Assembly: GCA_000934665.2 (NCBI GenBank)
Contig: KZ539250.1
Location: 1-62,958 of the forward strand
Direction: 5' to 3'
DNA length: 62,958 nt
Origin: Catajapyx aquilonaris
Lineage: Eukaryota
Part shown: in pieces, positions 17,301 through 58,292 of the stretch
How positions within the stretch are numbered: position 1 is the first letter of the stretch
Layout of the letters: each line of letters opens with the position of its first letter
Translations under genes and position numbers: made by a program
The notes under the pieces: model-generated
What the model saw: the letters and a program-made list of their open reading frames with translations, nothing else
Databases searched by the model: none
Told to the model about the DNA's origin: nothing

Positions 17301-18863
17301 ACCAATGTGGGACCTCCAGCCATGCCCGCATTTACGCGCACGGAGGAAGTCTTGGGAGCGGGAAGTCTGGAAGTAGAATCAGGAAATGCTCATGCCAACA
17401 ATGACGAAGATGATGAATTCAAGGGATGGGACCCAATGGGGGATGACTTCTATTCGGCCCGAAACAACTACGAGTTGGATACGGAAAACGCAGAAATGGC
17501 TCTGACCGGATACATTTCCCAGGACATGGAGCGAATATGCATGATGTATTATAAGAGGGGATACTGCAACCGGAGGGTGTGCGATTACGAGCATGTTATG
17601 CCGGACCCTAGTTAGTAAACTCTCTTTACCATCTTATGCTAACCGCATGGCTTACGTACCGATAAGTCTGCTTATTCATAATGAACCCTGGCAATGTTCC
17701 CAAGTATTTGTAATACACCTCACTTTACACTGATTAACTTATTCGGATTTATATCGATTGTGTTAAACTCTGCAGGATATAATTATTTTTGATAGAATAT
17801 GACAACAGCCATACCTCGCATACATGAATTGCAATTTTATTTTTTTTAGCTCTGTAAGGCCATAGTATTGGAATTAAAAGTTTTGGTAATGAAAGCAATA
17901 GATTTAATGTGTCTGTAATTAACACCTAATCCTGAGCCTTAACGAGCGAACCATTTTCAGCGGGAATCACACGCGACAAGGCACAAATAACGGTGCATCT
18001 GCCAGCGCCTAAACTTCCGCACGCCGGAACGTACTGCTCCGTGCAAGTCTCGGCCATAATTAATCCCGCTTCCTTCTACATTGTCTTCCCGCACGGACAA
18101 GTCGGATTGGGACGAATGTGGAAAAATGGTATGTAGCGTAAGCTGTTTCAAACTCGACAATATTAATTTAGATTTTGTCCTCAGAGAAAATGTGGGAAGA
18201 CCAGTTGAAGAAGGATTGCAAGATATATCGGCTCCAAAAGGCAATGCAGCATCAGTTCAAAAATTCGCGCATCACTGACGTTACGACGACTCCTGCCATG
18301 GGTGAGGTACTGGCCGCTTTGAACCGCGATGACGGGATGTGGTACAGGGTCAGGGTGAACTGTCTGACTGACGCTAGAGGAGACATGAATGTGTTCAGCA
18401 TGGATTACGGGTTCAGCTTCATGGTTAACGAGACTGATGTGCGCCATCTGCAACCGCATTTGAATCATGTGCCTGTCCAGGTATGTCCCTGTAATTTCAT
18501 GATGTGCTTAAGTTAATTGCAAGTACTTACAGGCTGTACAGTGCTTCATGAGCCACATGAAGCCGAATGGACCTGGATGGTCTCAGAAGTGCAATGATCT
18601 GTTTTATGGCCTTGTGGACAGCAAAGATCTGATTGCGTACATCCATTCCCGGTAGGCTGTGATATCTCCCATTTAAAGGCTGGATTTAGTAACGATGGTT
18701 CATTTGCAGTGGTGAGGAACTCAACACTCTGGAGGTGGATCTGTACGACGAGACTGGAACAAACATTGCAGAGTACCTGAGCCTGTCGGGACATGCGCAG
18801 ATCCAAACTCCAGCTCAGACTGTTCCGTTCCGTTCCGTAGATGTTATGCATGTACCTGGATAG
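14328..18863 (+). CDS. Multi-Tudor-domain protein with CCCH zinc finger (Krimper-like architecture; probable piRNA/germline factor)
   Basis: About 13 exons from ATG 14328 to TAG 18861-18863. The N-terminus is helical/coiled-coil-like. Three extended Tudor domains (AWYRGQI..VDHG; LWYRGKV..YVDYGD; MWYRVRV..SMDYG) are present, the first two preceded by SPEEFW/SPEEFY. C-x8-C-x4-C-x3-H (CMMYYKRGYCNRRVCDYEH) lies between Tudor 2 and Tudor 3. Confidence 0.85.
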
Positions 18864-19875: not shown

Positions 19876-21611
19876 ATGTCTTCCTCCTCCATCTACATCC
19901 TGGATGTGAAGGGGAAGGTAACTGAACATTTTAAAAATTGTTGTGTACGCACAGTACGCTATGTACACGCACAGTACCCCTAATTAACCAAGAAATTGCA
20001 CACAATTTTTCAGCCAACATATGTGCAGCATTAAAATAAGACACTAATTGTTACAATTGCAGGTGTTGATATCGCGCAACTACCGTGGCGATATCGACTT
20101 GGGCTTAATCGAGAAGTTCATGCCGTTGCTGATGGATAAGGAAGAGGAAGGTACGCTCACGCCCATCTTGCATACGGCGGAATGCGCCTTCTCATACATC
20201 AAGCACAACAACTTGTACATCGTGTCGACAACGAGAAAGAACGCAAATGCGGCACTCGTGTTCGTCTTTCTGCATAAGCTTGTACAGGTACGTTACACGC
20301 AGCCACTTACTGAGCGCAATTAACCCCGCAATTATTAACACAGGTAATGGTGGAGTACTTCAAGGAGCTGGAGGAAGAGAGCATTCGGGACAACTTTGTG
20401 GTCATATACGAGCTGCTTGATGAGCTCTTGGATTTCGGTTATCCGCAGACTACGGACAGCAAGATTCTGCAGGAGTATATAACGCAGGAGGGGCATAAAC
20501 TGGAGATTCAGCCGCGGCCGCCCATGGCCGTGACTAACGCGGTGTCGTGGCGCTCTGAAGGGATAAAGTACCGCAAGAACGAGGTCTTCCTTGACGTAAT
20601 CGAGTCCGTTAACCTGCTGGCCAATGCGAATGGGAATGTGCTGAGGTCGGAGATTGTTGGGGCGATCAAGATGAGGGTTTACTTGTCCGGTATGCCCGAG
20701 TTGAGGCTTGGACTTAACGACAAGGTGTTGTTCGAGAGCACTGGTCGCGGGAAGTCCAAGTCCGTTGAACTTGAGGATGTCAAGTTTCATCAGTGCGTCC
20801 GATTGTCCAGGTCAGCCTCTTGCTTTACGAGCCGTATGTAACAGAATATGTAACCGCTTTTCCATCACAGGTTTGAAAATGATCGGACCATATCCTTCAT
20901 TCCACCTGATGGCGAATTTGAACTGATGTCATACCGATTGAATACGCATGTGAAGCCGCTGATTTGGATCGAATCGGTGATTGAACGCCATGCGCACAGT
21001 CGAGTGGAATACATGATAAAGGCGAAATCGCAATTCAAAAGGCGGTCAACAGCCAACAATGTCGAGATTGCAATTCCAGTGCCAGCCGATGCGGACTCGC
21101 CCAAGTTCAAGACAAGCGTTGGAAGCGTCAAGTACGCCCCTGAGCAATGTGCGGTTGTGTGGACCATCAAATCATTCCCCGTGAGTAATCTAATCTCAGG
21201 ATGATTCATTTTCAGTTACGAGCACTTTAGTTGCACATTTGTCATGCAACTCCGATTGTCAGTAATTGTCACTTGTATAGCGGTATTGTTGCTTCAGTAA
21301 GAGATAAATGGTTGGATTGTTCTTTCAGGGCGGGAAGGAATATTTGATGAGAGCGCACTTTGGACTCCCAAGCGTCGAAGGTGAAGAATCAGAAGGAAAG
21401 CCACCAATTCAGGTCAAGTTCGAGATTCCGTACTTCACTACATCTGGAATCCAAGTAAGTAAAAAAATATCAGTTTGCTGACTCTTCATATGCTAACGAC
21501 ATACCATTCCAGGTTCGTTATCTGAAGATCATCGAGAAGAGCGGCTATCAAGCATTACCATGGGTACGCTACATCACTCAAAACGGAGACTACCAGTTAC
21601 GCACGCACTAA
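19876..21611 (+). CDS. AP1M1: AP-1 complex subunit mu-1 (clathrin adaptor medium chain)
   Basis: Exons 19876-19917, 20063-20287, 20344-20810, 20871-21180, 21329-21454, 21513-21611 give 422 aa. Motifs: MSSSSIYILDVKGKVLISRNYRGD, RDNFVVIYELLDELLDFGYPQTTDSKIL, VSWRSEGIKYRKNEVFLDVIE, YQALPWVRYITQNGDYQLR. Confidence 0.97.
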
Positions 21612-22747: not shown

Positions 22748-24009
22748 ATGGAGAGTGCTCCGGCCGCTCTGGAGCTGACTCTTTGCGGCACGAACTCATC
22801 TCTGTCACCGAGTGCCAAACTGGAGCTGGGTTCGAGTGTGTGTTTATCAAACTCTGACTTGTCTTGCTGCCATCCTGTGGTGCCTAACGACTACGCTGTG
22901 ACCGCTGGTGTCCTCTGCAGCTTTGTGGCCATCTTCGGATCACTGGGCAACATGCTGACCTTACTTGCTTTGCCCTACGCCAGAAAGCGTGCCACTGACC
23001 CCTACAGGTAATCTCTAACCAATCTGTGGTGCTTAGCAAGAATGAAAATTACAATTTGTGATTTCAGTCCATTGAAGAGCTCCGCCACAATCCTGGTGGT
23101 GTCCCTGGCCATGTGTGACCTCCTCTACTGCATGGTTAACCTGCCAGTGTTTGCCCTCCAGTATTGGAACCGCGGATGGCACCACGGACCAGTGTTGTGC
23201 TGGATCGCTGCTTTCCTGCGACATCTCCTGGCCTTCGCTTCCTTCATGTCTCTGGCCGCAATTGCCATCAACAGATGCCTGGCCGTTTGGTCTCAAACAA
23301 CGTGCGATGTCCTCTTTGGTTGGAGAGGTGTTCCGGCCATCATATGCGTATGGCTGATGGCCCTAGTCTTCTGCTCTCCAGGACTGTTTAAGGTGTACGG
23401 ACAGTTTGGATACAACATGGAGAGTGGTCAGTGCGACATGGCTCCAGTGTCCGGTCGCAATGGGCACACCCTGATGGTCAGTCTGGCTGTGTTGCTGCCT
23501 CTTGCAACAATGGTCACGTGCTCCTGTCTCATTGTAGTCCGGTTGAGGCAGATATCCACTCCAATCATCAATTTCCAGTAAGTTATTCGATTGTTGTGAC
23601 AAATTGAGTGATTTATAGTCTGTACTATTTTTGCAGCGATGTTGGGTCCAGCACCAAAGAGTTTCTTCAGCGTCGTGACCATCGGTTGACACGCCTTTGC
23701 TTCGTCCTCTGCGGTGCTTTCTTGTTCCTGGTTGGTCCTCTGGCTCTTTGCAAAGCCTGTGGCTTCCGTTACGAGCCATGGTCCTGGATACAGCTCTCAC
23801 TAAACGCCCTATACTGGCACCACTACGCTGCCAACTTTTGCATATACGCCCTGAGAAACTCTTGCTTCCAGAAAGCCTACGGAACCTTCCTGAAGGAAGT
23901 TGTGCTTCTGCCTTTTGCCAAGTACACCCTCAGGAGAGGACCATCATTAGCATCAGAGAGGACCAACAGCACTGTGTTTACAATATCAATCAATGAGACC
24001 TCGTACTAG
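22748..24009 (+). CDS. Rhodopsin-class GPCR, Tre1/moody/GPR84-like (divergent paralog A)
   Basis: Exons 22748-23007, 23068-23577, 23637-24009. Seven hydrophobic segments; motifs GSLGNMLTLLAL, LAMCDLLYC, AIAINRC, GQFGYN..GQC, RDHRLTR, ANFCIY. Confidence 0.88.
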
Positions 24010-28041: not shown

Positions 28042-29537
28042 ATGTGGAACTATACGTTTGACAACAATGATACGTATGACAACAATGATACGTACTACAA
28101 CAATGCGACGGAACTTCCTGATTTTTGTCGGGATTTGTCGCTAGGGGCAGAGCATTGCGTGGATCCAGGAGCGCCGCCATGTTGTTTCGCTCAAATCCCG
28201 CGGCCGTTCGCCATTTCTGCAGCGGTCCTTTGCTTCGTGGTCACCGTGGCTGGAACCATCGGGAATATGTTGACCCTGATGGCCATACCGTACGCTCGAA
28301 GCAGGTGCAAGGATTCAAACAGGTAGGATTCAAAAATGGCTTATGGATTCAAAATGGCCGCCCTCTCGCGCATAAGGCATAACCAACCTGTTCTTTCTAC
28401 ATGTATAGTTCGCTGTTCAACCCGATGACCCTTCTGGTGGTCAACCTGAGTCTGTCTGACCTGCTGTACTCCCTGTTTAACATGCCTGCGTTTGCGATGG
28501 AGTACATCAACGCTGGTTGGGCGTACGGACCTGGTTTGTGCTGGGCATCTGCATGGTTCAGACACATACCGCAGTTTGCGTCGTTCATGTGCGTCGGTGC
28601 CATTGCGTTACATCGATGTCTCATGTTGTGGTGGCCTAAGGCAGGAAAAGCGCTCTTTTCGACCTGGCATACCATACCTGCCATCTTGGCCATCTGGCTG
28701 TACGCATTCGGACTCATCATGCCTGTAGTGCTAGGGGTACGCTGCACAATTCCGTCACATTGTACTATAACACACAAAAAGATTGTCGCACTGTGTGGTG
28801 TTCGCGACTTTTTGGTTTGCCCTTCTGCCGCAAGGGGCCCCCAGCAACGACCCTTGCGGCAGGAGGGAAAACCAAAAAAGTCGCGCGACAATCTTTTTGC
28901 GTGCTATAGTACTTCACATGCTAACACTACTTCATAATTTCAGATTGACGGCAAACTAGGCTACAACTACCAGATGGGTCAGTGCGACGCTGTGCCAGTG
29001 GCAGGACGCAACTTCCATGGTCCAGCGGTGATGATAGCCATCTTGCTGCCTCTGAGTATCATGATGGTGTCCTCAGTGATGATTGTCATCAAAGTGAGGA
29101 GCAGTCGAGCCAGGTTGGGCAATATCGGTATGTGTTCAACGACAGTCGACCAGCTGTGGCGTCGAGAGATGCGTCTGACGGTACTGGTAGCGCTTCTGAT
29201 CATCGCGTACATTGTCTGCATCTCCCCAACTGCAATTGTGAAACTACTTGGAGGAGGACAGCCCGTGACGGTGTACCATGTGGTCGCCTTCTTCATCTAC
29301 TGGTCACACTTTGTCATCAACATCTTCATCTACTCGCTAAGGAACGGTGTGTACAGACGTGCGTACATACTGTTTTTCAAGGACACCCGGAAGATGGTGG
29401 TTCGAGGTGGTTCCAAGATTAAGGCCAGTCTTCCCAAACCATCCTTCAGGAGACCAAGCAACACCACGTCCTCATCGTCCTCATCTGTCTACACCATATC
29501 GAGCAATCGCACCACCTTTAGCACCGACATTACGTAA
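28042..29537 (+). CDS. Rhodopsin-class GPCR, Tre1/moody/GPR84-like (divergent paralog B)
   Basis: Exons 28042-28322, 28409-28736, 28944-29537. Motifs GTIGNMLTLMAIPY, LSLSDLLY, AIALHRC, GKLGYN..GQC, REMRLT, INIFIY. The first intron is at the same position as in paralog A. Confidence 0.88.
28762..28912. mobile_element. Intronic foldback/MITE-like element
   Basis: Outer arms GTACTATAACACACAAAAAGATTGTCGC and GCGACAATCTTTTTGCGTGCTATAGTAC; inner arms CGCGACTTTTTGGTTT..CTGCCGCAAGGG and CCCTTGCGGCAG..AAACCAAAAAAGTCGCG. Confidence 0.7.
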
Positions 29538-30264: not shown

Positions 30265-31631
30265 CTACGTCGGAGGTGGAGTTGAAGGGGATGGTCTGAG
30301 TGCCAGTATGTGCACTTGCGTACTGGCTGAGTGCATGTGGGCCATTTCGGTCATGCATGTCTTGTTGGAGAATGACCTGGAGTGACCGTTGGACACCCCG
30401 TTGCCTCCGCTTGTTCCGTCTTGTATACACAGGAGTTCCCGGAAGGCCTGACGGTACTGTCGGTTGCTGACGAAATAGATGAGTGGGTTGACCACGCTGG
30501 ATGCCCAGGCCAGGATCGATGCCAGTATGTGCACCGTTGGGTAATGCAGCTGCCAAAGAAAGATAACAATCAGATGTGCGTCACACACTTACCCAATCGC
30601 ACTTGGCCGGAACATTCTGAGAAAAATGAAAGGCTCCGGAAAGGATCATGTTGCGGTATGGTAACACTATACCTGATCGTCAGCCACGTTGACCAACATA
30701 AGTGGTAAGAAGCAGAGGAGGAAAGTGCAGAAGATGAGCACCATCATTCTTGTTAGACGCAGATCGTCTCTTTTTGGTGACGGTGTTGACGATACTGATG
30801 CCGTCTTGCCATCCCTGCATGTCAAACGATCCAGTCAGTGTGACCCCATTTGACCCTCACTATATACACTTACCCTTTGGAATGTGTGTGTGACAAAAGT
30901 GCGGTCCGACTGCGCCGCACTTTTCTGTAAATACAACCGTAGCAGACCAGTATGGCAAGACATGGAAGGAGGAATCCGAAGACGAAGAGGAACTTCTTCG
31001 GTGATCGGCCATCTTTAGGCAGTATGGTGCATGAGAACGTGGGCGGATCCAACCCGAGGCGTCCCCACACTTCAGCCAACGGTGGGGCCAACATACTGAA
31101 GCTGAATGACCACACCATCAGTATCATCACTGCCACAATCCATCCTCTGCCATACACACGCTCGTACACACCGTGCCAGGATATCAGCACGTACCTGAAA
31201 TATATGCATAGACATGTACATCCGCATCAATAGTAGTAAGACGGATGTCTATACCTATTGATGGCGATGGCCACCATGGACATCAGTGAGGCTGCCACGT
31301 TCCCGTAGAAGAAGAATGGGAATAGCCGACACAGTGGCTCTCCAAGGACCCATGCTTCGTGGATGTACCGGGATGCTGTGGCAGGGAGGTTGATGGCGCA
31401 GAAGAGGAGGTCAGCACCACAGAGGCTGAGGACGAAGGCGGTGGTGGCTTGCGACCTCAGCTTACGGCTTCGGAGTAAGGCCATTATGCTGAGGAGGTTG
31501 CCTGCAAGACCCACAGCGGACAGGACCACTGCACAGGATGCGGCCAACACTGTGGCCTCTCGAGGGAAAGGCACGGGCGAGGATGACACCGGGACATCTT
31601 CAACGCCAATGGTCGATTCGTCGTAATCCAT
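30265..31631 (-). CDS. Tre1: Trapped in endoderm 1-like GPCR
   Basis: Exons 31631-31255, 31194-30874, 30814-30673, 30549-30265. Motifs: ATTAFVLSLCGADLLFCAINLP, FFFYGNVAASLMSMVAIAINRY (NRY), WGRLGLDPPTFSCTIL, SPKKFLFVFGFLLPC, DDLRLTRMM, WASSVVNPLIY..NRQYR. Confidence 0.9.
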
Positions 31632-32326
31632 GGTTCATCTGCTGGGTGGAAAGTAAGTGCTGTTTATTTTTGATCATCTTACAGTTAGTTGGTGTTGTTG
31701 AGGTGACGATTCAATGGTACGTGCCTGTGCACATATCAGCTAGTAGCCAACTGACTGACAGCACAGCCAACTAGCCAAGGTCGACAGTATGGCAACAGCC
31801 TCCGTGCAAGAATAAGACACCCTCAGAAATTATTGATAAAACATGTTACGTAATGATAATGACGAAGACGCCCACGCATCATTTCAAGAGCCTTTGCTAT
31901 TTATACGCGGTATCACTGCATGGCCAATTGACTGTCCAACACGAGGGTTGGCATCAATAAAAATCAGAGTCCCCCCCTCTCTCCCTTTGACAAAGAACAG
32001 TCTTCTGGAATCATAAGCGGTTTCCAAGCCTGGCAGTTTCAAAGGGAGCATAGGTCACATAGGCTCAGGTTACACGTGTTTTTCTCTCTCGCGCCCTTTT
32101 TCCCTTGTTGTTTTCTCTCTGGGGGCTGTCAGGGAACGGTCGGCTGCCTCCCAACAAGAAGGGCAACGTCTCCATCAAGAAAACCTTGTCTCTATATGCA
32201 ATCTACTTGCATGTCAAGATTAGCAGACACATTATTTAGTAGAGCATCACTCACACAACAATGTCAAAGATGCATTCATTTTACCTCAAGAGACAATATT
32301 ATTGTCATCAATGTATGCCTATAGCA

Positions 32327-32469: not shown

Positions 32470-32497
32470 TATATATATATATATATATANNNNNNNN

Positions 32498-32545: not shown

Positions 32546-33413
32546 GGTGGTATTTGTTTTCAATCTTTTGCAAACAAGCCATTGACCACACAGTAACTGA
32601 CCTATGGCCGGAAATGGACGGCAAGCGAGTGACCTCACCACATATATCCGTCTGGCCAGTGCTATGGTCACCACATTCCGATTTGAACCACGCAAAAAGC
32701 CAAAAATTGGTGCATTTGACGTGTTCAAAACTTGTGACCAAAATATTTTTTTTTTTAAAAAAAAAAATGGTTTCAACAGTTCTCCGCTACAATGAGTGTC
32801 GCTCTAATCGCGATTTTTTTTTGGCGGGAAAACCAGCAACAATTTAATTATTTTTGAGTAACTCACCAGCGATCTATATCCTGGACGAATCTATCCTCCA
32901 GAGGCACTTGAACAAGTGGTGGCTTGATGATGGTTCCCAGCCATCCTTCGTCTTCTTGCAAAGAGAAACGTTCCTCCCCCTTCCTCATTGGCCACTTTGC
33001 CGGCCAATGCCAGCCGGTTTCCTCCGACAGCCCGCCAATTTGCTACGCCAAAACCCCGTAAATATTGCACTTAGGTGACTGTAAACGAGTACACACACAT
33101 GTGTCACTGCACCCTCCCCTTTTTGTCATTCACATTGCTTATTATTCACCCCATCCTCATTACTAATGCCGGGTCAAATCAGCAGGACCACACACTAAAA
33201 ACAATAAGGGGTACATCATTTTGGACCAGTGATGTCACTATTCTTTACGACAAATTTCATGCTTTAGCCAAACATGGACAGTTAGTTTACACATTCATAT
33301 ATTAAATAAGTACATTAATTACTACGACTACGTCTACTATATTATGATTAAAGACGGTCAATTAAAAGATGATCCCCTAATAAAAAGCCCAAGGAGGCTT
33401 ATCAGGGGGTATC

Positions 33414-33414
<1 letters not shown>

Positions 33415-33497
<83 letters not shown>

Positions 33498-33712
33498 ATC
33501 TACTATTACGACTACGACTGCTATAACGACTACGACTATGTCTATGTCTACTATTACGACTACGACTACGTGTACGTCTACTACTATTACGACTACGACT
33601 ACGTGTACGTCTACTACTATTACGACTACGACTACGTGTACGTCTGCTACTGTTACGAGTCTTACGACCACGACGACTGTCTATTCTTCTTCTTCTTCTT
33701 CATCTTCTTCTT

Positions 33713-33764
<52 letters not shown>

Positions 33765-33887
33765 GTCTATGTCTACTATTACGACTACGACTACGTGTAC
33801 GTCTACTACTGTTACGACCACGACTGTCTTCTTCTTCTTCTTCTTCTTCTTCTTCTTCTTCTTCTTCTTCTTCTTCTTCTTCTTCTT

Positions 33888-33928
<41 letters not shown>

Positions 33929-33945
33929 GGTGCTGCTGCTGCAGC
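33415..33945. repeat. Compound trinucleotide microsatellite: (ATT)n, ACT/ACG higher-order units, (TCT)n, (ACT)n, (GCT)n
   Basis: Directly visible; it explains the poly-L/T/F/Y/I ORFs in the track. Confidence 0.95.
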
Positions 33946-34486
33946 ACTAGATAGGATAAGCTAGTTGCAAGCTAGTGACGTCGAGTGGAACTTTCGTCCC
34001 ACTGATATAGCTACTGTTAACTTAGCAGTGCCATTCCCAACATTGGTACTGCTAAGTTAGCAGTAACCAGCAGTGAGACGAAAATTCTACCCGTAATTTT
34101 CAGCCATTTTGATACGGAAGACAACAATAGAAATTTTCGATTAATTAAATGTATATGTATTAATATATTTATTAATTTTATTTGAACGTGGTAGAGTGAC
34201 CCTTATGTGAGTGTGCACTTGTTCTTGTTGGGTTGATGCCTTGATGGACACTGCATGATTGGTGGATTGGGGGTAGGGTCATGGAGATAAGCAGGAAGAA
34301 GCATAAAAAAGTTGGGTTGGATGGGATGGGATGGGGGGTGGGGGAGGGTGTGGTGGCGATGNGAGAAGAAGGGCAGCCCTTGTTTTTAGTTGGGGGGAAT
34401 TGCTTGGAGGGTAGTATAAGGTGGGTAGGGTATATGGGGGGTGGGGGAGGGAAGAAAGTTTCTCTGGAAAATGTAGCAAGATATAT

Positions 34487-37958: not shown

Positions 37959-39093
37959 TCATTGTGGAGATGGCGTCGGTGGGAGAATTGGGTGGTTGTG
38001 GGTGTGCAGGTGGGGGAGTGGGTGCGGGAGAGAGTGTGGGTGGGTGTGGGTGGCGAAATGTGGGTGCTGAGGAGGTGGGAGACATCTGGAGCATGATGGT
38101 AGGGGTAAAGGTGGGGTTAGCCCAGGGGCGGACACCCCCATTGAGGAGGTGCCTGTGGGCAACGAGGTGTCTCTGGGGCGTCGTGGGCGTCGGCAGCAGC
38201 AACGGCAGACGAACATGAGGGCCATCAGGAGCGCCAATGCCCCTGCACAATGCCAAGCAAACGCAAGGGACACCCACACCAATGCTGAGCTGTACTCATG
38301 GGCCCCCTCAGGTGTCCCATCCAATACAGACTTACGGACACTATCACGTATCGTCTCAGTGCCGTCCCTGCAAATATTGTCCACATTACTATTAAGAAGC
38401 AATAATTCAATTATTAGCTCACCAGTGCAAGAGGAACGCGCAGTGGACAAACCAGGATCCATGCAGCACTGCAAATAGAGCCCTTGCGAACCTCCAGAGG
38501 AACGGATGTGGTGAGCAGGCTGCAGCTTCAATCAGACAGCATGCAGCACAAGAGTAGATGGACACCACCAACAGAAAGTGGACATGCTGCTCCAGGACAG
38601 CCTCTCTGGCAAGGTGGAGATGGAACATTAGGCCCTCGATGGCAAAAGCGAGGGCCAACACCAGCCGGTCCATTCCTGGTGGGACAGCCAGTGGACAGTA
38701 GTGGACCAGGACATCAGCCAGTCCGGACAAGGCAAAGAACATGTAGATGGAAGCGTAGAGCATGTCTCCAACAGGCTGGAGAGAAGCGTTGGTTGAAGGG
38801 GCGGCCATGGCCACTGAGGCTGCGATGCCCAACCCTGTGATGGACAGCTTGATGACTCCTTCGGCCGGAACATTCCGCATCCTCCAGGAGCAGCTGCGAC
38901 GGTTGTCTCCGCCACGACGCTGCTTCTTCTTGCTTCGGGACCATCCGGAAGTGGAGGAAGCCTCGGAGGAAGAGATGGTGGCGTAGCTATGTTGCTGTTG
39001 CTCCATTTGCTCCAGGGCCACCTGCACGCCCCATTTCACTCCGAAAGCCAACATGGCCGCTCCTGGGAGGATGTAGCCTGCCAGCTGCCTCAT
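37959..39093 (-). CDS. TMEM45/DUF716-family multi-pass membrane protein
   Basis: Exons 39093-38423 and 38367-37959. The N-terminal GYILPG compares with TMEM45 GHALPG; other motifs are EGVIK, YMFFALSGLADVL, LALAFAIEGLMFHLH, LEQHVHFLL, LHGSWF and FAWH. The cytoplasmic tail is Cys/Pro/His-rich. Confidence 0.8.
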
Positions 39094-42000
39094 CCTGGTG
39101 ATGATGATGCAGATTCTACCCTATACAAATTGGCACTGCATTAGTCACAATGGGATGTATGAAAAAGCAATTACAAGTCCTCCCTAAACCAAAGAACGAT
39201 CTGACGTCACAACAACCGTGTTTTCTGGGCATGCGCAGAGCGATTCGATCATTTATTCTTTCGAATGAAAATGGGCAAAAAAAAATCCACTCAATGTAAG
39301 GGAAATCGGATTCTTTCGAGTAATTTTTTCACTCGATTTGACGAGTTAAAGTAAATCTTTGCGGAGTGAAATTCGCTCATAGCATTTTGCGAAATTGCTT
39401 TCATTTTTTTGAGTGTGAGATTTTCACTCATTTTTTTAAAGAGGGATATATACGTCCATTTTAAAGTGATCGACATGTGAAATCCATTGTTCTGTACTCC
39501 GCAAGCATGTCCGTCAGATAAATAATTAACTCCATGAAAGTGCTGCCGTTCAATGCTCCAGACCCGTTACACATCGAAGAAAGTTGTCGCCTACAGCAGT
39601 ATTGCAACGACCGCTAATATTGAATTTAAGCCCCTAAGGTCAACGTACCCAGAACCGGTGCTTGAAACTGTGTTGGACAAAGGCATTAAATTCGTGGTTA
39701 TATATTATATTATATCCGAATATTGTAGCGTATATATGACCTGTCAGTACTCTTCCTAATTAATATGTTACTATGCTGATGAGCCGACGCCCATGTCAAT
39801 TATTACATCATGCTCAACAATGGCTAATTACCTGCCCACTAATGTAGTGAAACATCATACCCTATAAGAAAAACTTGCTCCTTCTGCCAAACAAGTCTAA
39901 TTAGAAAACTTGTATACAAATAAATATTAAATTAAATTAATTTCTGCAACAGAGTAGCATCCGGATTAAAAAGTAAGATTCGTTCACATATTTTTGTGTG
40001 TGATGTGTGATCAGCAACAATGTACATCTTTGTAATACTTTGATTCAAATGAAAAGAGGCACTGACCTGGTGCAATGGTTAGGCGAGGTCAGGAGCAGGA
40101 GGCTGCAGGATGGAGCCCAATCTGCAGGTGCTTTTCTCTCGCTTATACCCGAAAACTTCAGTCTACGCAGCTCTATCGATTCGTAGCCCCCCCCCCCCCT
40201 CATCCTCTCACNGCCTGGACCGTACTATGGACCACGCCTGTTTCCAACCCTACACATTATAATAACATATATACTGTAGAAGCATACTTAATTATTCATT
40301 TTGGGGCAAGCCTCAAGGCGAATAGGGATGGGCTTGAATAGCATTGTTTAAGGGTTGGAATAATTTTTGAAACCAAGTTTAAATCGGATTTAAGTTTTGG
40401 GATGGCCATGAGTACCATTAGTAGCACGCTGAATAATTAATGGCTCGAGTGGTTTTTCCTACCCAGAAATAGCAGTTTTATACACAAGCTATCCGAAAGT
40501 TCGCATAAAACATTCAGCGTCTCCGTCGTTTAAAAAAAATACAAGGTGGTGCAGTGCTCAAGTCCCAATGTGACACAGAGGAATCTCTGCAACCCAGTTT
40601 AAATAAATGCAACTATCACTAGCGCTTACATAGAAAGAAGATATGGACTGTTTACTTAAACCATAAGAGGAAGCAACAATCACAAATTATTGATCTCTAC
40701 GTACATTGTCTGTTGATTTTGTTTAATGGTTTACTTCGCATAATAATTGCTAACTAATGAATATTGACTTCACTTTTAATTACAGCTCTTGTTATATCCA
40801 TACAGGGACATTACAGGGTAAATGACATTTAAAAAAATTATATCCAACAGTCTTCTTCTCTACAATTATTATAACTGCTGGGGACAATGCTCATAAATAT
40901 TAATTGCTCTCCTTACCTTTTATTACAACTCACCAGCACTTCATCGATGCATCCACCACTCAGCAAGCCTACATCATGTGTACAGGATACATATCCGAAA
41001 TAGCTAAGTGACGTCGTCATCTCCTGTGTTGCCACGTTACCTCAAGGCTCCATCCTAAGCTACTGTATAAAGTGACATGATTCATCTGACTTGATAATTT
41101 GCAGCCCTGCCCCCAGAATTTATTTATCACCCTGTACCAGGACGTTGAACCTCACCCTGTACATACTACCCCCCCCCCCCAAAAAAAAATATCCGTTCGC
41201 AATAATAAGTACCCAAGTTATTGATTTGAAGGAGTGCAAAAAAGCGTGGTATGCAGTAAATTTTGTAGCTGACAAAACGCGATTTGTGGAGGTGCAGCTA
41301 TAGCTTTTTATAGTATGTGGGCCTGCGCATTTTGATGATAGTTATGCAGGGCATTAATTAGGGGGCGGCTGGGAGGAGCAATATTTGCAGAGTGGAAGGG
41401 GAAAAGTACGTGTAAAGCAAACATTGCGTATACACTTGGCTTCTTTTTTCATTAGGCGTGTCAGGTCCTAGGTGATAATGTAATCCATGGGTCCATGTCA
41501 CCTAATCCGACCTAATCAAAGGTGAAAGGGTCGTCGCTTTTTATCGGTTTGGTTAGATAGAAAAAAAAGAGGACACGGTCAAGGTATGGAAGAACTGCAT
41601 GTGTCCAACATTTTTCAAAAAAATTTTGGTCGATATAACCATGCCATAAATCAAACTGTTTTTTAAACCAATTTTACATACTATTGTGCCACATGCAGGA
41701 ATTTTCTTTCACACCCTGTACACACTACATCGTCGCATCAGTTTATGGAAAATAGACACTACAAAGTACAGGAAACTTCACAGTAGTATACATCAGGTTA
41801 TGTTTTCAAAAAAAAGCTACAGTTTTTTTTCTCTCCCAAATTTCTATAAGTATAGAAGTCTATTATAGCAAGGTACAAAACAACGATTTGAGTGACGTCA
41901 ATCGTGTGAAAAGGCAACGGGATTGGAGGAAGGGTTGGGTGGGTGGAATATTATAGGTTTATACAATTCGATGTTTCCAAAATAATTTGAGTGGAAAATA

Positions 42001-42508
42001 TATTGGGAAGATAACTTTTTTTTAAAGTCCTCATATATCAGTTATAGGCAAGTTTTTCAACTAATTTTTTAAAACATTAATTTCAGGTTCACACGGGTAT
42101 TGTCTTTGGGTCGTTGCAACTATCACAACTTATCCATAAGACCCCCCCCAAGTTGCATCGAACCACATTTTTATGTGCATCTAATTACCGGTATGCAAAG
42201 TGCATGCCTGCATATGAATTAGTTAACAGGCTTAGTAATGCATGAGTTCTAGCAAAAAACTGGTCCCTCAAAAGGGCAGAGGTGGAAAAAAAACCCTCTC
42301 GGTTTTTAGCGAAATGATCTGTCAAGTTTGGCGTTTCATTTCATTCATAAAATGTATGAATTCATAGCAAAAAATGGGGAAGATTGGCCAAAAAAGTTGC
42401 GCAGTAGAAACAGGCACGGTGAAAAAATCTAGCCCTTCTATACCTGGTGTCTTGTAATTCAGACACGGTATATGTCAAATTGGAGCAACATTTTTTTTTG
42501 GAAGGGCT

Positions 42509-43017
42509 TCAGACAAATGTGACTTTGGCAGTGTTCTGCGTGGTCTGTGGTATGGCGTTGACTGTATTGAGAGCCTGAAGTGCAAGTCTGTTGCAGAGTC
42601 GTCCTCTTGAAGTGTTGTGCATCCATCTCTCTCTGGCTGCCTTCATGTACTGTTGGTACAGCTTAGTTTCCTCCATTTCACGCTGTTCCTTCCGCATGTA
42701 CTTGATCATCATGAAGACAATGCCGAATGAGTAGAATGCCAGAACAACCACGATGTAAATAAGCGCATCCTGGTCACTCTGACCAAATGGAACTTCTGTT
42801 GTTGTTTCGACTATATAGAGAAAGTTGATCAATATGTATACCACCAACTATAGGTACTAACAAAATTACCTGAAGCGTTAACAGGTGCAGCTTGCTGGTT
42901 CAGTAAGTACTCTTCCAGAAGCTTTGTGATGTTGGGACAGTTTAGGGAAGCTACAGCCGCTGCTGCCACAGGTCGCGACGTTGAGGTCACAGGAACACGC
43001 AATTCAGTCGAATTCAT
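42509..43017 (-). CDS. Small single-pass membrane protein, KCNE/MinK-like (149 aa)
   Basis: Exons 43017-42870 and 42810-42509 splice in frame (450 nt). There is no signal peptide. Three N-glycosylation sequons (NST, NIT, NAS) precede one TM helix, DALIYIVVVLAFYSFGIVFMMIKYMRK, followed by EETKLYQQYM; the C-terminus is VTFV. Confidence 0.75.
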
Positions 43018-52700: not shown

Positions 52701-55700
52701 GCAGTCTTTTGCTCTGAATCTGCGATGAGAAAGTTACTCACTGTGATGTACCATATTTTAGTTGATTGTTAAACTTACTGTAAGCCATGGCCATGGTGAC
52801 ACTGCTGGCTTCACTGCCAGGAATGTCGATTGAAGCATGGATGGAACCATATCCGACTGTTGGAATTGCCCATGGTGCAAGGTACCAGCCAGTTGGGGTG
52901 TTGGCTTCCATAACAGCCGCCCACAGGGACTGCGTAGTGTCCATTGAATCAAGCGTGTAGTTGACCTTGGTGTTGATACCAAACGCATGCTTTCCGTACT
53001 CCTCAACAACCTGAAATTAACATATTTTACAGTAGGATCATCACCAATGGATTCTGCTGTGACTAACCTCTGGAAGTTCCTCGTTGACAACGATAAGGGA
53101 TCCAGAAACCTCTGGAGGGCTGAGCCTGTTTAGAGAGGCAGACATGGTCTTTGGCTTTTGTTGTGCATGGAAAATGGTGACTTCCTCATCAATATGTGGG
53201 AACAAGGAGTACGAAGCGGTGACCACCTGCTGTGCTCTGTCCCAGGATATCTCGGCCAGCCCCTGTGCATTGTACATCACCTGCTTGGCCACACTGGCAG
53301 CAACATGCTTCTTGGTGGAAGGAACGAAGAATCCGATGGAACCGTACAACTGCCAATAGTAGCTGGCGTCCACGAAGGCAGTGATGTTGACCTGATCAGG
53401 AACGACGAATGGACCACGACGCATATCAGGCTTGGTCTTGGCATTCAGACCGCCCTTTATCTTGAGGACTGATGGAAACTCGAAGTTGGCCATTGCGACG
53501 GCACCCATAGCCGTGGGGTAGGCCAAAGTGTGCTCTTCACTGTACCATGCACTACGCCAGTGCATGAAATATCCTCTGTCCATTACATCGCGAAGAGTGT
53601 TCTGCCAATCTGCAATGAGCACAATTAATTATCTAATTCCCACACCACAATGACAAGTTGCTTACATGAACCAATCTTCTGGTACCAATCTCCAGCCAAA
53701 GTGAAATGCTTGGACTTGCTGTTGTCACTCTGGGCTGAAGCGAAGAATGTTGAGAAGATCGACGTGGGTCTCTCCAGCAAATGCAGTGCACTCTTAATCT
53801 TCTCCATGTTAGCTGACTGTTCCTGTTGATGACCTGATGGTGTCCCTTCAGATGATTGCTGGAAGGTGCTCTGGAAATGTTCCTTGATGCCTCGAAGGGT
53901 GTCGAACCACGATGAGAACTGGTATGGCACGAAGCTCTTCAACATTCCTGGTTGCAAGTTGTACATTAGGAATATGTTTCTAGGGAAGGCTGAGGTTCGA
54001 GAAGCATGTGTGCTCATCTCCACGAAGTATCCCAACTCAAGTTCGTAGATATAGTCAGAGTGGACATAGGCAAGAGAGTCTGCCAGTCCACACTCGATGT
54101 CCTTGATGAGAGGATAAACTCCCATTGCCTTCTTGCGCCTGTTAAGAAAATATTGATATAGAACGTAGCCTGTGTCACTTTGTAACGTACTTACAAGTAC
54201 TGATGGTGTGGATCTCGCACATCTTTTAGAGACTGCATAAGAGACTGCAAGTAGCAATGCACCTTGTGGTTCAATCCTTGGTATGACTTCAGAGCCAGAT
54301 TTTGAAGGACGACAGTGTCCGCATCTGAGTACATAAGGATGTTGATAGCTGCAATTCGCACGTCAGGATGTTCGCATTCATCCATGATGAGGGCATCGAG
54401 GACATAGGCAACAGCTGCACGGTTGGTGGACAGAGCCAGACGTATCAGGGAATACACAGCTTCAGTACGGATGAGAGGTCTCTCCGTGACCTTGCCTTCA
54501 AGGATTGGGATCATGTCTTTCAGGGTGTCGGGATGTCCCAGACGGTTGAGAGCCATCAAGTACTTCAGCTGTTAAAAAGTTTGTTACAGTAATTCAAACC
54601 TGTGTGTGTCTTCAGTACTTACCACTTTGAGAGTTGATTCTTCATCATCTCCGGTCTTCAGGTGCTGATTCAGCCTACTCTTGATATCACTATAGAACTT
54701 CTGGACGACCTTGGAATGCACGTTACAGCTGAACTCGTAGATGTTCTCAGGGAACATGAAATGCGACATGCGGGGATGGACACAAGCTTTGTGCAAGAGA
54801 TCAGCAAAGTTGACGATGGCAATAGCCTCCAGATGATTGTCGTCATCTTGAGACATTGTCCACTGGACGAATTCCTGCCAATGCAAACGGACAAATGAGC
54901 ACATGCGAGACAGAGTTAAGTGAACTATTCGACTAACCAGGATGTGCTGAAGCATTTCTTCAGTAGGTGTGGTCACGTATGAGTACAAATGCACCAGGAT
55001 ATGAGGAGCCATCGCAGTCCAGTGACCATCCTCCTTCAGTTGACCACTGCGGATCATCTCCTGGACCATCTTGATAGCAGGGTTAGTTCCTGCCATGCAC
55101 AGAGCATCCGCAAGCATAGCCCTGTGTGAATTGAAATCCTTTATCTAGTTCAATTTTTTTCCAGTCGCAGTGACACTTACTTGATTTTCTTCGGCTGCTG
55201 ACGGAAAGAAGACTGCATCTGCTGGAGTTCATTGTAGTTGAGGACCCTCAATAGCTTGATCAGATGTTGCAGCTTGTTACCGGCATCCGAGTCAATGACA
55301 GAGCTGGAGTAATCAAACATGTCGGGTATCTCATAGATGTAGGTGAGAGCCTGCTTGATGACGGTTTTCCTGCTGGGAGGAGATATCCCACTGAAGAGCA
55401 TGGATCCGTATGGGGTCAAAGGAGCTTTGTCGAGACCAGGAGACTTGACCAATGCAGAGTCTTCCTTCTGGTATTCGGCTCCAGGCCAGCGGAAGTACAG
55501 CTGAGAAACGGTACTGAATTCACCATGGCTTGGACGAGGCGCGGAGGCCATGTTGACCTCCAGAAGGTACATGCTCATGGTCGCTTTGGCAGAGGCGTCC
55601 TCAGCATCAATGAGCTGCAAGTTGGCAGCCAAAGTGTCCCTGGCTTGGATGCTGAACGGCACGAAAGACTTGTCACCGCATCCGATGTAGTTGACAGTGT

Positions 55701-56807
55701 TGCCTCTCTGTCAATTGTGTTTATTGTTAGTGGCTGAACATTTGATTCGGTCCATAAACATACCTGCATGATGTTAGCGCAAGAGTTACCACCAGGAGGA
55801 CACTTGAAGGACGGTGGGCTTCCATAGTGGATGCTGGGGTCGTTGGAGCAAGCAGATGTGTTTGTGGTCTTGATCACCTGAACGTACGGACCTTCTGGGC
55901 AGTACTTGCGCATTACTGTACGTACACTGGAGTCCCACGAAGCGACGAGATGACGAGGGAGATTCTGCACCTGGTATTCAGTGTAGCAGTCGCCCTGAAG
56001 TTGCTGTTCCTCCACGAAGAAGTGCATGATCTGCCCTTGGCTTCGACTGAGTCCAGGTGCGCTCTCTTGTTGTTCATGCTGTCTCTTGAAGGCTCCCACT
56101 TGGAACAGGCTGCACTGGTACTTCTTGAAGTTGAGTGCCGGACGAGGAAGGCCTTTGTTGGTCTCCAGCCTGTCAAACTGTGGGTGGAATTTGAGTCAGT
56201 TGATTTTCTACAATGTTTACAATTCTGGAGTCACATAATAATACCTTCTCATTCTTGTAGTGGCAGATGACAGGTGCCTGGTACTGGTCTCGTATGAGGG
56301 TTGGCATGTTGTCGCTCTTCTTTCCATTGTAATGGTTGCCCATAGGTTGGAAGGCGTCTCCTTCGTCAAACACGGTCATGGACTCCGTCTGTGGTATGGT
56401 CATATTATTTTTAATACTGATTTTACCATTGTTGCTTTTCCTACCTTTAGTAGCAGCGTCTCGTCATCTTGGGGGATAACGTTGAGAAGGTATTGAAACT
56501 CGTTGTATGCATATTGATGCTTCAGCTGGTGGATACCACTCTTGAACAAGTTGCTGACTTTGTACACATACTCGTAGCCAGGTTTGTACAGGACTGGAAT
56601 ATCAGTAAATGGAATTAAACATCATGATACGAAGACAATGATTTTCCAAACTTACCTTGCTCTGAAGGTGCTCCGACACCTGCCATACAAAGAGAAGAAC
56701 AGGATTATTAAGAACATATTCAAAATGTAGTTTCTAATCAAAGTCTTAAGATGGGAATTACCGAATATTATGGCTATGGCAAGGAGCAACTTGGTGTGCC
56801 GGTTCAT
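49715..56807 (-). CDS. Vitellogenin-like large lipid transfer protein 1 (Vitellogenin_N, DUF1943-type region, C-terminal VWD)
   Basis: Signal peptide exon MNRHTKLLLAIAIIF (56807-56762), a micro-exon at 56679-56656, then YKPGYEYVY. Further motifs: EQQLQGDCYTEY, DALCMAGTNPA, ALNRLGHP, EHPDVRIAA; VWD TLDDFTF..CGLCGDFNGE; Cys-rich tail. Stop TAA at 49717-49715; roughly 20 short introns. Confidence 0.9.
52130..52435 (-). repeat. Coding tandem repeat, 6 x 51 nt (17 aa, SHEHADHDAHPSHENDE consensus), within vitellogenin-like 1
   Basis: Six in-frame units totalling 306 nt, immediately followed by RRQKR (52129-52115). Confidence 0.92.
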
Positions 56808-58139: not shown

Positions 58140-58292
58140 GCTTTTGACGTGAATACGTCTTTAAAATCGGGTCCGTATAGAGGGGGGGGNNNNNNNNNNN
58201 NNNNNNNNNNNNNNNNNNNNNNNNNNNNNNNNNNNNNNNNNNNNNCCCCCCAAATACTGAACCGATTTTAAAGACGTATTCACGTCAAAAGC
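58140..58292. repeat. Inverted repeat flanking an assembly gap
   Basis: Perfect 31-bp arms GCTTTTGACGTGAATACGTCTTTAAAATCGG and CCGATTTTAAAGACGTATTCACGTCAAAAGC, with G- and C-runs abutting the Ns at 58190-58245. Confidence 0.75.

Follow-up and report, generated by a model that had tools for sequence, protein, structure and literature searches.

A minus-strand gene of Catajapyx aquilonaris encodes a small, predicted single-pass member of a conserved protostome family with apparent sequence kinship to KCNE potassium-channel subunits

The window analyzed here, a stretch of 62,958 nucleotides taken at its full length, carries a minus-strand gene of two exons (43017..42870 and 42810..42509), which, when joined by coordinates, give a coding sequence of 450 nt specifying 149 aa and a stop. 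The joined coding sequence and its GT–AG intron bear out the two-exon, 149-aa gene proposed in a first-pass annotation made from the sequence alone. The features of the locus are as follows.

42870..43017, minus strand: coding exon 1; ATG at 43017-43015; residues 1-49 (49 codons) and the first base of codon 50. Its product is the predicted extracellular N-terminus with sequons N2, N29 and N47.
42904..42945, minus strand: conserved N-terminal motif, L-N-C-P-N-I-T-K-L-L-E-E-Y-L, residues 25-38.
42811..42869, minus strand: intron of 59 nt, GT..AG, phase 1.
42509..42810, minus strand: coding exon 2; residues 50-149, TGA stop at 42511-42509; 100% tblastn self-hit.
42698..42766, minus strand: predicted transmembrane (TM) helix, A-L-I-Y-I-V-V-V-L-A-F-Y-S-F-G-I-V-F-M-M-I-K-Y, residues 65-87, from hydropathy and AF2 pLDDT >90.
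42641..42700, minus strand: juxtamembrane segment, Y-M-R-K-E-Q-R-E-M-E-E-T-K-L-Y-Q-Q-Y-M-K, residues 87-106, helical in the AF2 model.
42512..42607, minus strand: family-specific C-terminal module, R-G-R-L-C-N-R-L-A-L-Q-A-L-N-T-V-N-A-I-P-Q-T-T-Q-N-T-A-K-V-T-F-V, residues 118-149.
42512..42520, minus strand: C-terminal T-F-V, an end of the class I PDZ-ligand type (S/T-x-hydrophobic); the protein ends in AKVTFV.
42300..42508, minus strand: 3' untranslated region of at least 209 nt; the spliced X1 contig reaches 42300, the edge of the compared stretch.

When the frame is read through the unspliced intron, it meets a stop at codon 63; across the canonical intron, the 149-codon frame is intact. In public run X1, whose run type is not on record, a 570-nt minus-strand contig covers 42928..42870 and 42810..42300. 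This contig joins 42870 to 42810, and the gap corresponds to exactly 59 nt with the ends CT..AC on the plus strand. The splice is thus independently confirmed by a contig from a run of unrecorded type; the first-pass proposal had been made to hinge on a spliced transcript, and a spliced contig is what X1 contains. X1 was the sole run found to contain the stretch, none of the runs recorded as RNA doing so, and neither AATAAA nor ATTAAA occurs in 41900..42508. Exon 1 is also matched by the spider homologue P0027 (tblastn 42960..42856, 51% over 35 aa), while exon 2 is 57-72% identical to its homologues (tblastn). A tblastn search of the window with 19 family proteins for a second copy or long N-terminal exons returned only the two known exons, all other matches having E>=0.018. 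The genomic neighbors (transporters, GPCRs, Tudor, AP-mu and vitellogenin-like genes) are uninformative on function.

The sole strongly hydrophobic stretch of the protein spans residues ~65-87 (KD19 2.57), flanked by acidic residues before and K/R after. Since hydropathy over the first 40 residues peaks at only 1.06, there is no signal-peptide-like start. Sequons N2 (NST), N29 (NIT) and N47 (NAS) all lie N-terminal of the helix, and a fourth, N115 (NTS), falls on the predicted cytoplasmic side. The protein is therefore predicted to be a small type I single-pass protein with its N-terminus outside and without a cleaved signal peptide, and the sequons predict that its N-terminal ectodomain is glycosylated. 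Four features read from the sequence in the first pass, i.e., the lack of a signal peptide, the three N-terminal sequons, the single TM helix, and the T-F-V end of class I PDZ type, all held up on computation. AF2 modeled residues 61-135 as a single long helix, confident through the TM and juxtamembrane parts. A Foldseek search of this model against the PDB gave 0 matches at E<=10, as expected, because a single helix is not discriminable.

Several segments of the protein are marked by family conservation. At the N-terminal motif, whose region (42945..42898) is matched by P0012 and P0004 in tblastn, members share the consensus C-x-N-x-T-x-L-L-x-x-Y, in which a short helix-like stretch comes after a sequon; in the search of profile A1 against the PDB, HMMER aligned this motif with the N-terminal segment of KCNE2. 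In the TM helix, the invariant family columns are Y, I, V, L, F, Y and S, and G79-I80-V81 lie opposite the KCNE1 triplet F57-T58-L59. The juxtamembrane segment aligns with the KCNE Y-I-R-S-K-K...F/Y-x-x-Y-I region, both in the KCNE1, 2 and 3 alignments and over positions 38-83 of the Pfam ISK_Channel profile. In the C-terminal module, the invariant columns are L76, A77, L78, N82, K96, V97, T98 and V100 (P0002 numbering); the KCNE alignments end before this module, which has no counterpart in the KCNE matches. Across 42 sequences, the K-V-T-F-V end varies little or not at all, and an S/T-x-V/L end is also found in most displayed members of other subfamilies.

All 49 candidates compared with the protein proved to be homologues at E<=0.01, with E-values from 1.9e-33 to 3.3e-11, which, together with the match of a spider homologue to exon 1, places the gene far beyond chance. 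Long forms accounted for 25 of 58 candidates. Searched against 1.84 billion representatives, profile A1 retrieved 455 proteins at E<=1e-3, of which 205 reached E<=1e-10. The named family members come from chelicerates, a myriapod and malacostracan crustaceans, with related subfamilies in annelids, molluscs and a nematode; no insect was among the named members found in the homologue searches. For members from Logan, ENA and JGI that carried no name, cluster look-ups supplied only Dreissena, Batillaria, Plakobranchus, Romanomermis and Ridgeia, the nematode protein being P0165 (Romanomermis culicivorax). The hallmarks of the A1 family are a Y-I-V-V-V-L-x-F-Y-S TM core, a Y-M-R/K-K-E exit, an R-L-x-N-R-L-A-L-Q-A-L-N helix and a K-V-T-F-V C-terminus, and the window protein carries all invariant columns of alignment A1. 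On these sequence grounds, we assign it to a strongly conserved protostome "K-V-T-F-V" family of predicted single-pass proteins. In a tree of 48 family rows, it branches from an unresolved arthropod polytomy and lies in none of the starred euchelicerate or decapod clades, and no lineage can therefore be assigned to it.

The first-pass annotation had suggested an invertebrate KCNE-type relative, and the sequence-kinship part of that suggestion is supported by family profiles and ISK_Channel matches. For the exon-2 product (residues 50-149), ISK_Channel (PF02060) was the best of 24,736 Pfam models (E 0.0017, 18.5 bits), though below its gathering cutoff of 22.1 bits, and Pfam held no better-matching unrelated single-pass family. 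The product of exon 1 alone had no Pfam match. Among the 42 A1 family members, 35 match ISK_Channel at E<=0.01. The 22.1-bit cutoff is exceeded by 10 of 41 homologues, which score 22.9-28.7 bits and align from profile positions ~3-13 to 83-90, a span that takes in ectodomain, TM and juxtamembrane. In a wider-family sample of 70 proteins, 21 match at E<=0.01, two of them above the cutoff. Automatic annotation already places an ISK_Channel domain on 6 of the 49 homologues. In the ESM Atlas, the nearest cluster is named [quoted passage not shown] (score 0.93), and 16 of 30 matches share the ISK_Channel set.

Taken as a single sequence, the protein matches solved KCNEs weakly (HMMER, E 0.17-0.63). 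The alignment to KCNE1 made by eye in the first pass was reproduced by HMMER as an ungapped single-sequence match of P0002 16-48 to KCNE1 43-75 (E 0.44). Profiles A1, A3 and A4, built separately and partly overlapping, were searched against 177,635 PDB sequences. All nine matches of A1 were KCNE1, KCNE2 or KCNE3 (best KCNE2, E 0.0026), four of the five matches of A3 were KCNE1 (E 0.027), and nine of the ten matches of A4, which combines 64 sequences from several subfamilies, were KCNEs (KCNE3, 7.3e-4; KCNE1, 2.8e-3; KCNE2, 8.4e-3). The mixed profile A2, made from 71 mollusc/annelid-type members, gave six PDB matches, all unrelated, and no KCNE at E<=10. Significance in profile-to-sequence matching is modest, with E between 7e-4 and 0.1.

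A stronger match came from P0190, a member of subfamily A3, which reached human KCNE1 at E 5.6e-6 (phmmer; 29.3 bits over 88 residues), all five of its matches being KCNEs, and scored 33.7 bits on ISK_Channel. That alignment includes the first sequon of P0190, which lies opposite the N-T-T near the start of KCNE1. Subfamily A3 is in turn linked to A1 by hhalign (probability 99.1%, E 1.5e-18), and profile A1 retrieves P0190 at E 2.5e-12. The KCNE alignments of P0190 and A4 start at the first sequon, end at the juxtamembrane aromatic pair and cover ~85-95 residues, interrupted by one or two gaps. The juxtamembrane motif of KCNEs is written Y-x-R-S-K-[KR]...D-P-[FY]-x-x-Y-I. In a one-gap alignment, the window protein has Y-M-R-K-E opposite Y-I-R-S-K-K, and L-Y-Q-Q-Y-M opposite P-F-N-V-Y-I / P-Y-H-Q-Y-I; it lacks the D-P and has an acidic linker instead. 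A hydrophobic helix makes up much of the matched region, and in such a helix resemblance by chance or convergence is more frequent. Together, these comparisons support kinship with KCNE, mostly at modest significance.

According to papers of 2024 and 2026, invertebrates have no known KCNE, and one (PMC13516689, 2026) describes canonical KCNE genes as not found in invertebrates except for the nematode MPS proteins. Ciona is described as having no KCNE-like gene (PMC3206303). The absence of KCNE genes from Drosophila, which the first-pass annotation had noted, is stated in print (PMC3168433). Literature searches, confined to the papers apart from their supplementary files, found no previously described invertebrate KCNE. 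As far as these searches reach, the family, whose data are public and in part automatically annotated as ISK_Channel, has apparently gone undiscussed in print.

We favor, as reasonably probable, the explanation that the gene encodes an expressed 149-aa single-pass protein, a distant homologue of vertebrate KCNEs from an old protostome family, that acts by a KCNE-like mechanism. That the locus is instead non-functional (a chance open reading frame, a pseudogene or a mis-spliced fragment) is scarcely credible. It would fit the lack of the stretch from runs recorded as RNA, the unrecorded type of X1 and the missing poly(A) signal in 41900..42508, but it is already contradicted by the 57-72% identity to homologues in distant arthropod classes with invariant motifs, and by the X1 contig with its intron removed exactly, to which the intact 149-codon frame across a canonical intron may be added. 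We also consider it improbable that the KCNE likeness is convergent or compositional, the family being an unrelated single-pass one with a similar helix and basic membrane exit. The marginal E-values of the window protein, the failure of A2 to match a KCNE, the 49 of 70 wider-family proteins without an ISK_Channel match at E<=0.01 and the empty Foldseek result (single helices being not discriminable) all point in that direction. Against this, A1, A3 and A4 match KCNEs almost exclusively among the PDB sequences, the alignments extend for ~85-95 residues and contain one or two gaps, the curated Pfam cutoff is exceeded by 10 of 41 close homologues, and P0190, which matches KCNE1 at E 5.6e-6, belongs to a subfamily linked to the window's family at 99.1%.

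A further alternative, which we regard as unlikely but worth more weight than these two, accepts a true relationship to the KCNE superfamily and gives the protein another job, as a PDZ-anchored adaptor or regulator of another channel, transporter or receptor, with function carried by the C-terminal module. Vertebrate KCNEs are promiscuous partners, which counts in its favor. The strongest conservation does lie in that module (L-A-L...N...K-V-T-F-V), for which KCNEs have no counterpart; decapod and stomatopod orthologues carry an extra N-terminal region of 150-800 residues with a hydrophobic start, unlike KCNE; and no named insect member was found, yet insects have KCNQ (PMC3168433). On the other hand, the TM and juxtamembrane parts, which contact the channel in KCNE complexes, are nearly invariant (Y19, I20, V23, L24, F26, Y27, S28, Y38), and they are the parts held in common with KCNE.

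For the favored KCNE-like subunit, we propose a mechanism by analogy with KCNE. The TM helix would pack against the alpha subunit of a voltage-gated K+ channel (KCNQ or another Kv), the helical juxtamembrane segment (Y-M-R-K-E...Y-Q-Q-Y-M) would tune gating or trafficking, and the cytoplasmic module, with its N-R-L-A-L-Q-A-L-N helix and K-V-T-F-V end, would tether the complex to a PDZ scaffold. Channel binding, a partner channel, an effect on currents and PDZ binding are what we infer for this protein. If a KCNE-like family is indeed present in chelicerates, myriapods, crustaceans, annelids, molluscs and a nematode, this class of regulators would date to early bilaterians. It would also provide a candidate Kv auxiliary subunit for genetically tractable invertebrates (spiders, ticks, crustaceans, molluscs), and would raise the question of why insects, which have KCNQ, appear to be without such a subunit. 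The invariant PDZ-type tail suggests a possible link between an auxiliary subunit and a synaptic or epithelial scaffold that is not seen in vertebrate KCNEs. The chances seem evenly balanced that KCNE-type subunits are an ancient bilaterian family and not a vertebrate invention, with several protostome subfamilies (at least three in molluscs, and one, ending in T-F-V, common to arthropods and annelids) and an original PDZ-binding tail; that the family was lost or became unrecognizable in insects and tunicates; and that vertebrate KCNEs, as a derived branch, have lost the C-terminal module, the window gene being an arthropod representative of an ancestral Kv beta subunit.

Among known systems, vertebrate KCNE1-3 (MinK, MiRP1 and MiRP2; PF02060; PDB 2k21, 2m0q, 2ndj, 6v01 and 9u7f) are the closest. 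KCNE subunits bind and modulate Kv channels, and in the matched PDB entries, KCNE chains are present in four copies per entry. Like the window protein, KCNE1-3 are ~100-170 aa long and have no signal peptide, N-terminal sequons and one TM helix that extends into the cytoplasm. The sequence Y-[IM/T]-R-[SK]-[KR] at the membrane exit, followed ~12 residues later by aromatic-x-x-Y-[IL], also appears to be common to both. Unlike KCNE, the window protein has no D-P before the aromatic pair and an acidic E-E-x-K in place of the S-N-D-P stretch, has G-I-V where KCNE1 has F-T-L, and carries the N-R-L-A-L-Q-A-L-N helix and K-V-T-F-V end that are absent from the KCNE matches. The language model placed the exon-2 product nearest to clusters of the vertebrate SMIM34A (0.91) and of unnamed chordate "ISK-domain" proteins (0.93; ESM Atlas), 13% and 40% of whose members, respectively, carry ISK_Channel; this is a lead only, given as cluster scores without an alignment or E-value. 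A literature search for SMIM34 listed no paper concerned with its function. Among nematodes, C. elegans MPS-1 to MPS-4 are described as KCNE-related single-pass proteins, with reported modulation of Kv channels (KVS-1; PMC4210162 and PMC13516689). Compared by description, MPS-1 differs from the window protein in its long cytosolic domain, reported as a kinase (PMC4210162).

Within the family, the malacostracan long forms (273-921 aa; Panulirus, Cherax, Macrobrachium, Portunus, Scylla, Eriocheir, Petrolisthes, Palaemon and Oratosquilla) are 67-74% identical to the window protein from TM to C-terminus and have the V-L-A-F-Y-S-F-G-I-V-F-M core in common with it; they differ in a lengthy N-terminal addition whose start is hydrophobic and signal-like, and tblastn found no exons of this sort upstream in the window. 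Spiders and horseshoe crabs have at least two paralogues, whereas the window has one copy. Other arthropod relatives, themselves uncharacterized, resemble the window protein more fully: LOC111614378 (Centruroides sculpturatus, P0006), LAZ67_20000111 (Cordylochernes scorpioides, P0005), T1JEY9 (Strigamia maritima, P0011) and LOC135392792 (Ornithodoros turicata, P0008) belong to the same length class (111-169 aa), are 57-72% identical to it over exon 2, and have both the C-x-N-x-T N-terminal motif and the K-V-T-F-V end.

The gene under study was read from the sequence on the minus strand.

Exons and intron of the gene, from sequence reading
43017-43015, minus strand: start codon ATG
43017..42870, minus strand: exon 1, 49 codons plus 1 base
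42869..42811, minus strand: intron of 59 nt, GT..AG
42810..42509, minus strand: exon 2, closing with TGA

When the exons were joined by coordinates in a script, we obtained a CDS of 450 nt, i.e., 149 codons plus the stop, and the unspliced frame reached a stop at codon 63. The splice was independently confirmed by a 570-nt minus-strand contig from X1, the sole public run containing the stretch (kept as contigs; run kind not on record), which spans 42928..42870 and 42810..42300 and omits exactly 59 nt, the skipped ends reading CT..AC on the plus strand. Since this contig reaches 42300, the 3' UTR is at least 209 nt long. Within it, the contig departs from the window at a single base, 42490 A>G, which may reflect allelic or strain variation. 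The intact CDS, the GT..AG intron and the contig junction bear out the coordinates and the two-exon, 149-aa structure proposed in the first-pass annotation. No second copy of the gene was found within the window by tblastn with family proteins.

The window also holds SDF-type transporters, Tudor, AP-mu, DUF716 and vitellogenin-like genes and three rhodopsin-type GPCR genes; in a eukaryotic genome, these neighbours give no functional hint for the gene under study.

Other features of the window
3578-3937, plus strand: SDF (sodium:dicarboxylate symporter, EAAT-like) exon, Pfam E 4.6e-21
7324-8088, plus strand: SDF (EAAT-like) exon, Pfam E 2.1e-9
10613-11044, plus strand: SDF (EAAT-like) exon, Pfam E 5.1e-18
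15110-18513, plus strand: multi-Tudor-domain gene, Pfam scan
20048-21201, plus strand: adaptor-complex medium (mu) subunit, Pfam scan
23012-23578, plus strand: rhodopsin-family GPCR (7tm_1), E 9e-22
28383-29534, plus strand: rhodopsin-family GPCR (7tm_1), E 2e-14
30268-31634, minus strand: rhodopsin-family GPCR (7tm_1), E 2e-20
38422-39120, minus strand: DUF716 protein, Pfam scan
53044-56195, minus strand: vitellogenin/lipoprotein N-terminal-domain gene, Pfam scan

Two near-duplicate SDF first-domain exons, about 7 kb apart, suggest tandem transporter genes, and the three GPCR genes are clustered within 9 kb, one on the opposite strand. A long simple-repeat tract occupies 33361-33961, where every frame consists of I, Y, or R/S/L repeat runs; assembly gaps appear as N runs at 32490-32497, 34362, 40212 and 58190-58245.

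The encoded protein has one strongly hydrophobic stretch, at about residues 65-87 (Kyte-Doolittle 19-window value 2.57), and no signal-peptide-like N-terminus (hydropathy maximum there 1.06 on the same scale). Sequons N2, N29 and N47 all lie N-terminal of the helix; a fourth, N115, is predicted to be cytoplasmic. The protein terminates in A-K-V-T-F-V, of which K-V-T-F-V is a class I PDZ-ligand-type end. The anatomy described at first reading, with three N-terminal sequons, no signal peptide, one TM helix and a PDZ-type T-F-V end, therefore held in full. An AF2 model built on A1, the 42-sequence alignment of the family, predicted a continuous single helix over residues 61-135 (12-86 of P0002, the exon-2 product), with pLDDT exceeding 90 for the membrane segment and at 83-85 for the juxtamembrane one.

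To assess the proposed kinship with KCNE, we searched P0002 against 24,736 Pfam models, and ISK_Channel (PF02060), the KCNE model, was the top match (E 0.0017; 18.5 bits, below the Pfam cutoff of 22.1), with residues 11-57 aligned to profile positions 38-83 of 126. When A1 members were each scanned singly, 35 of the 42 matched this model at E<=0.01, and the next family was matched by 3. The cutoff was passed by 10 of 41 homologues, namely P0005 (28.7 bits), P0010 and P0043 (26.8), P0047 (26.1), P0032 (25.7), P0040 (24.8), P0041 (23.6), P0006 and P0009 (23.5) and P0042 (22.9), whose alignments mostly begin at profile positions 3-13, within the ectodomain. Against 177,635 distinct PDB sequences, all nine matches of the A1 profile were KCNE1, 2 or 3 (KCNE2, E 0.0026; KCNE3, 0.012; KCNE1, 0.035). 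With A4 (64 sequences across subfamilies), nine of ten matches were KCNE (KCNE3, 7.3e-4; KCNE1, 2.8e-3; KCNE2, 8.4e-3), the tenth being PsbM at 0.86.

The subfamily profile A3, which contains the homologue P0190 and includes the gastropod Babylonia, gave four KCNE1 matches out of five in the same PDB set (E 0.027-0.47). P0190 itself matched human KCNE1 by plain phmmer (E 5.6e-6, 29.3 bits; 5/5 matches KCNE), its residues 73-160 aligning with 13-97 of the 2k21 chain, or 4-88 of a 129-residue chain, an alignment that takes in the first sequon, crosses the TM helix and reaches the juxtamembrane aromatic pair. It scored 33.7 bits on ISK_Channel, a model matched by 22 of 23 A3 members. By hhalign, A3 aligned with A1 at 99.1% probability (E 1.5e-18, 54 columns), and the A1 profile recovered P0190 at E 2.5e-12. 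This transitive chain links the window protein's family to KCNE1 as putative kin. In the ESM Atlas, the cluster nearest P0002 (0.93) was a chordate one bearing the name 'Slow voltage-gated potassium channel domain-containing protein', SMIM34A was also near (0.91), and the ISK_Channel set was common to 16 of 30 matches; we regard this proximity as a lead. HMMER reproduced the earlier by-eye alignment, with KCNE1 Y65-I66-R67 on Y87-M88-R89 of the window protein, and placed KCNE1 F57-T58-L59 opposite G79-I80-V81. That triplet is described in the abstract of PMC7584456 as essential for slow activation.

Using P0002 as query, 49 proteins of 55-175 aa were recovered (E 1.9e-33 to 3.3e-11). The organisms named were spiders, ticks, a scorpion, a pseudoscorpion, horseshoe crabs, a sea spider and the centipede Strigamia, and the named proteins, P0048 excepted, were all 'uncharacterized' or 'hypothetical'. 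One source lists P0048 (100 aa, metagenome contig) as 'archaellum biogenesis protein FlaJ (TadC family)', to all appearances an automatic misannotation of a member of this animal family. A search for longer proteins added 25 members from 58 candidates, the named long forms being decapod and stomatopod crustaceans (273-921 aa) with 67-74% identity over the TM-to-C-terminus part. In the malacostracan orthologues P0053-P0059 and P0206-P0221, the C-x-N-x-T motif is preceded by an extra N-terminal region of 150-800 residues that opens with a hydrophobic stretch and contains conserved cysteines, a gain that turns the KCNE-like short ectodomain into a large one.

Across A1 (n=42), little or no variation was seen in the Y-I-x-x-V-L-x-F-Y-S core of the TM helix, the Y-M-R/K-x-E membrane exit, the segment R-L-x-N-R-L-A-L-Q-A-L-N and the final K-V-T-F-V. 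A 48-row tree placed the window protein in an arthropod polytomy, apart from the euchelicerate and decapod clades, both of which were well supported; the highest identity it showed was 70%, to Panulirus. Spiders have two paralogues (P0010/P0046, Oedothorax; P0024/P0040, Trichonephila clavipes; P0043/P0044, Caerostris) with nearby locus tags and a longest listed contig equal within each pair (626,694; 745,858; 1,196,241 nt), the 'B' paralogue being the one above the ISK_Channel cutoff. Horseshoe crabs have several copies.

Among 1.84 billion representatives, the A1 profile matched 455 proteins at E<=1e-3, of which 205 reached E<=1e-10 and 17 reached E<=1e-30. The best 150 of the 455, which are those listed, form several subfamilies round a common core, A-x-x-Y-I-V-V-V-L-x-F-Y-x...Y-[LIM]-[KR]-x-E, and the few for which names were recovered are bivalves and gastropods (Dreissena, Mya, Mercenaria, Mactra, Lottia, Patella, Arion, Candidula, Batillaria, Plakobranchus, Babylonia), annelids (Capitella, Ridgeia) and the nematode Romanomermis. 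Since the Ridgeia protein has the same K-V-T-F-V end as its arthropod counterparts, arthropods and annelids have this subfamily in common; most listed members of other subfamilies also end in S/T-x-V/L. No insects were named among the matches listed in the P0002, longer-protein and wider-family searches. Since these were word-limited and cover listed matches, this is a soft indication, not proof, of loss or divergence in insects. The absence of KCNE genes from the Drosophila genome, mentioned at first reading, is stated in PMC3168433. In the literature passages searched, we found no invertebrate KCNE in print. PF02060 is already assigned automatically to 6 of the 49 P0002 homologues, and one UniRef entry bears the name 'Potassium channel domain-containing protein', so that the data are already public though apparently undiscussed.

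Could the likeness be convergence in an unrelated protein? The window protein itself scores under the Pfam cutoff, it is missing the juxtamembrane D-P of the KCNE motif, and the best-conserved part of its family, the C-terminal 32 residues, is without a KCNE counterpart, the alignments stopping before it. The hydrophobic helix makes up much of the region common to the family and KCNE, single-sequence E-values of the window protein against solved KCNEs were 0.17-0.63, and in a wider-family sample ISK_Channel was matched at E<=0.01 by 21 of 70, two passing the cutoff. Not one KCNE was matched by the A2 profile, which was built from 71 mixed mollusc/annelid-type members and has 605 columns, a mean identity of 13% and long low-complexity tails; its six matches (E 0.3-3) are unrelated. 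On the other side stand the ISK_Channel, PDB and P0190 matches, which support the KCNE-type reading as sequence kinship. With both sides weighed, the family is very probably homologous with KCNE, and convergence seems unlikely. That the locus is not a gene is scarcely credible. No runs recorded as RNA were listed as containing the stretch; the junction is present in a contig of X1. Exon 1 bears the family motif C-x-N-x-T-x-L-L-x-x-Y and is matched by a spider homologue (51% identity over 35 aa, tblastn).

As to function, we lean toward the window protein being a Kv auxiliary subunit, by analogy with KCNE; a KCNE relative with another partner is a possible though lesser prospect. The solved KCNQ1-KCNE complexes among the PDB matches have four KCNE chains each. 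By the same analogy, the helix of the auxiliary subunit would lie against a Kv alpha subunit, and the role of its juxtamembrane helix would be to modulate gating or trafficking. Taken with the N-R-L-A-L-Q-A-L-N helix, the invariant K-V-T-F-V end suggests putative anchoring to a scaffold. At the level of sequence kinship, the gene very probably encodes a member of a protostome KCNE-like subfamily with a conserved cytoplasmic module of its own.
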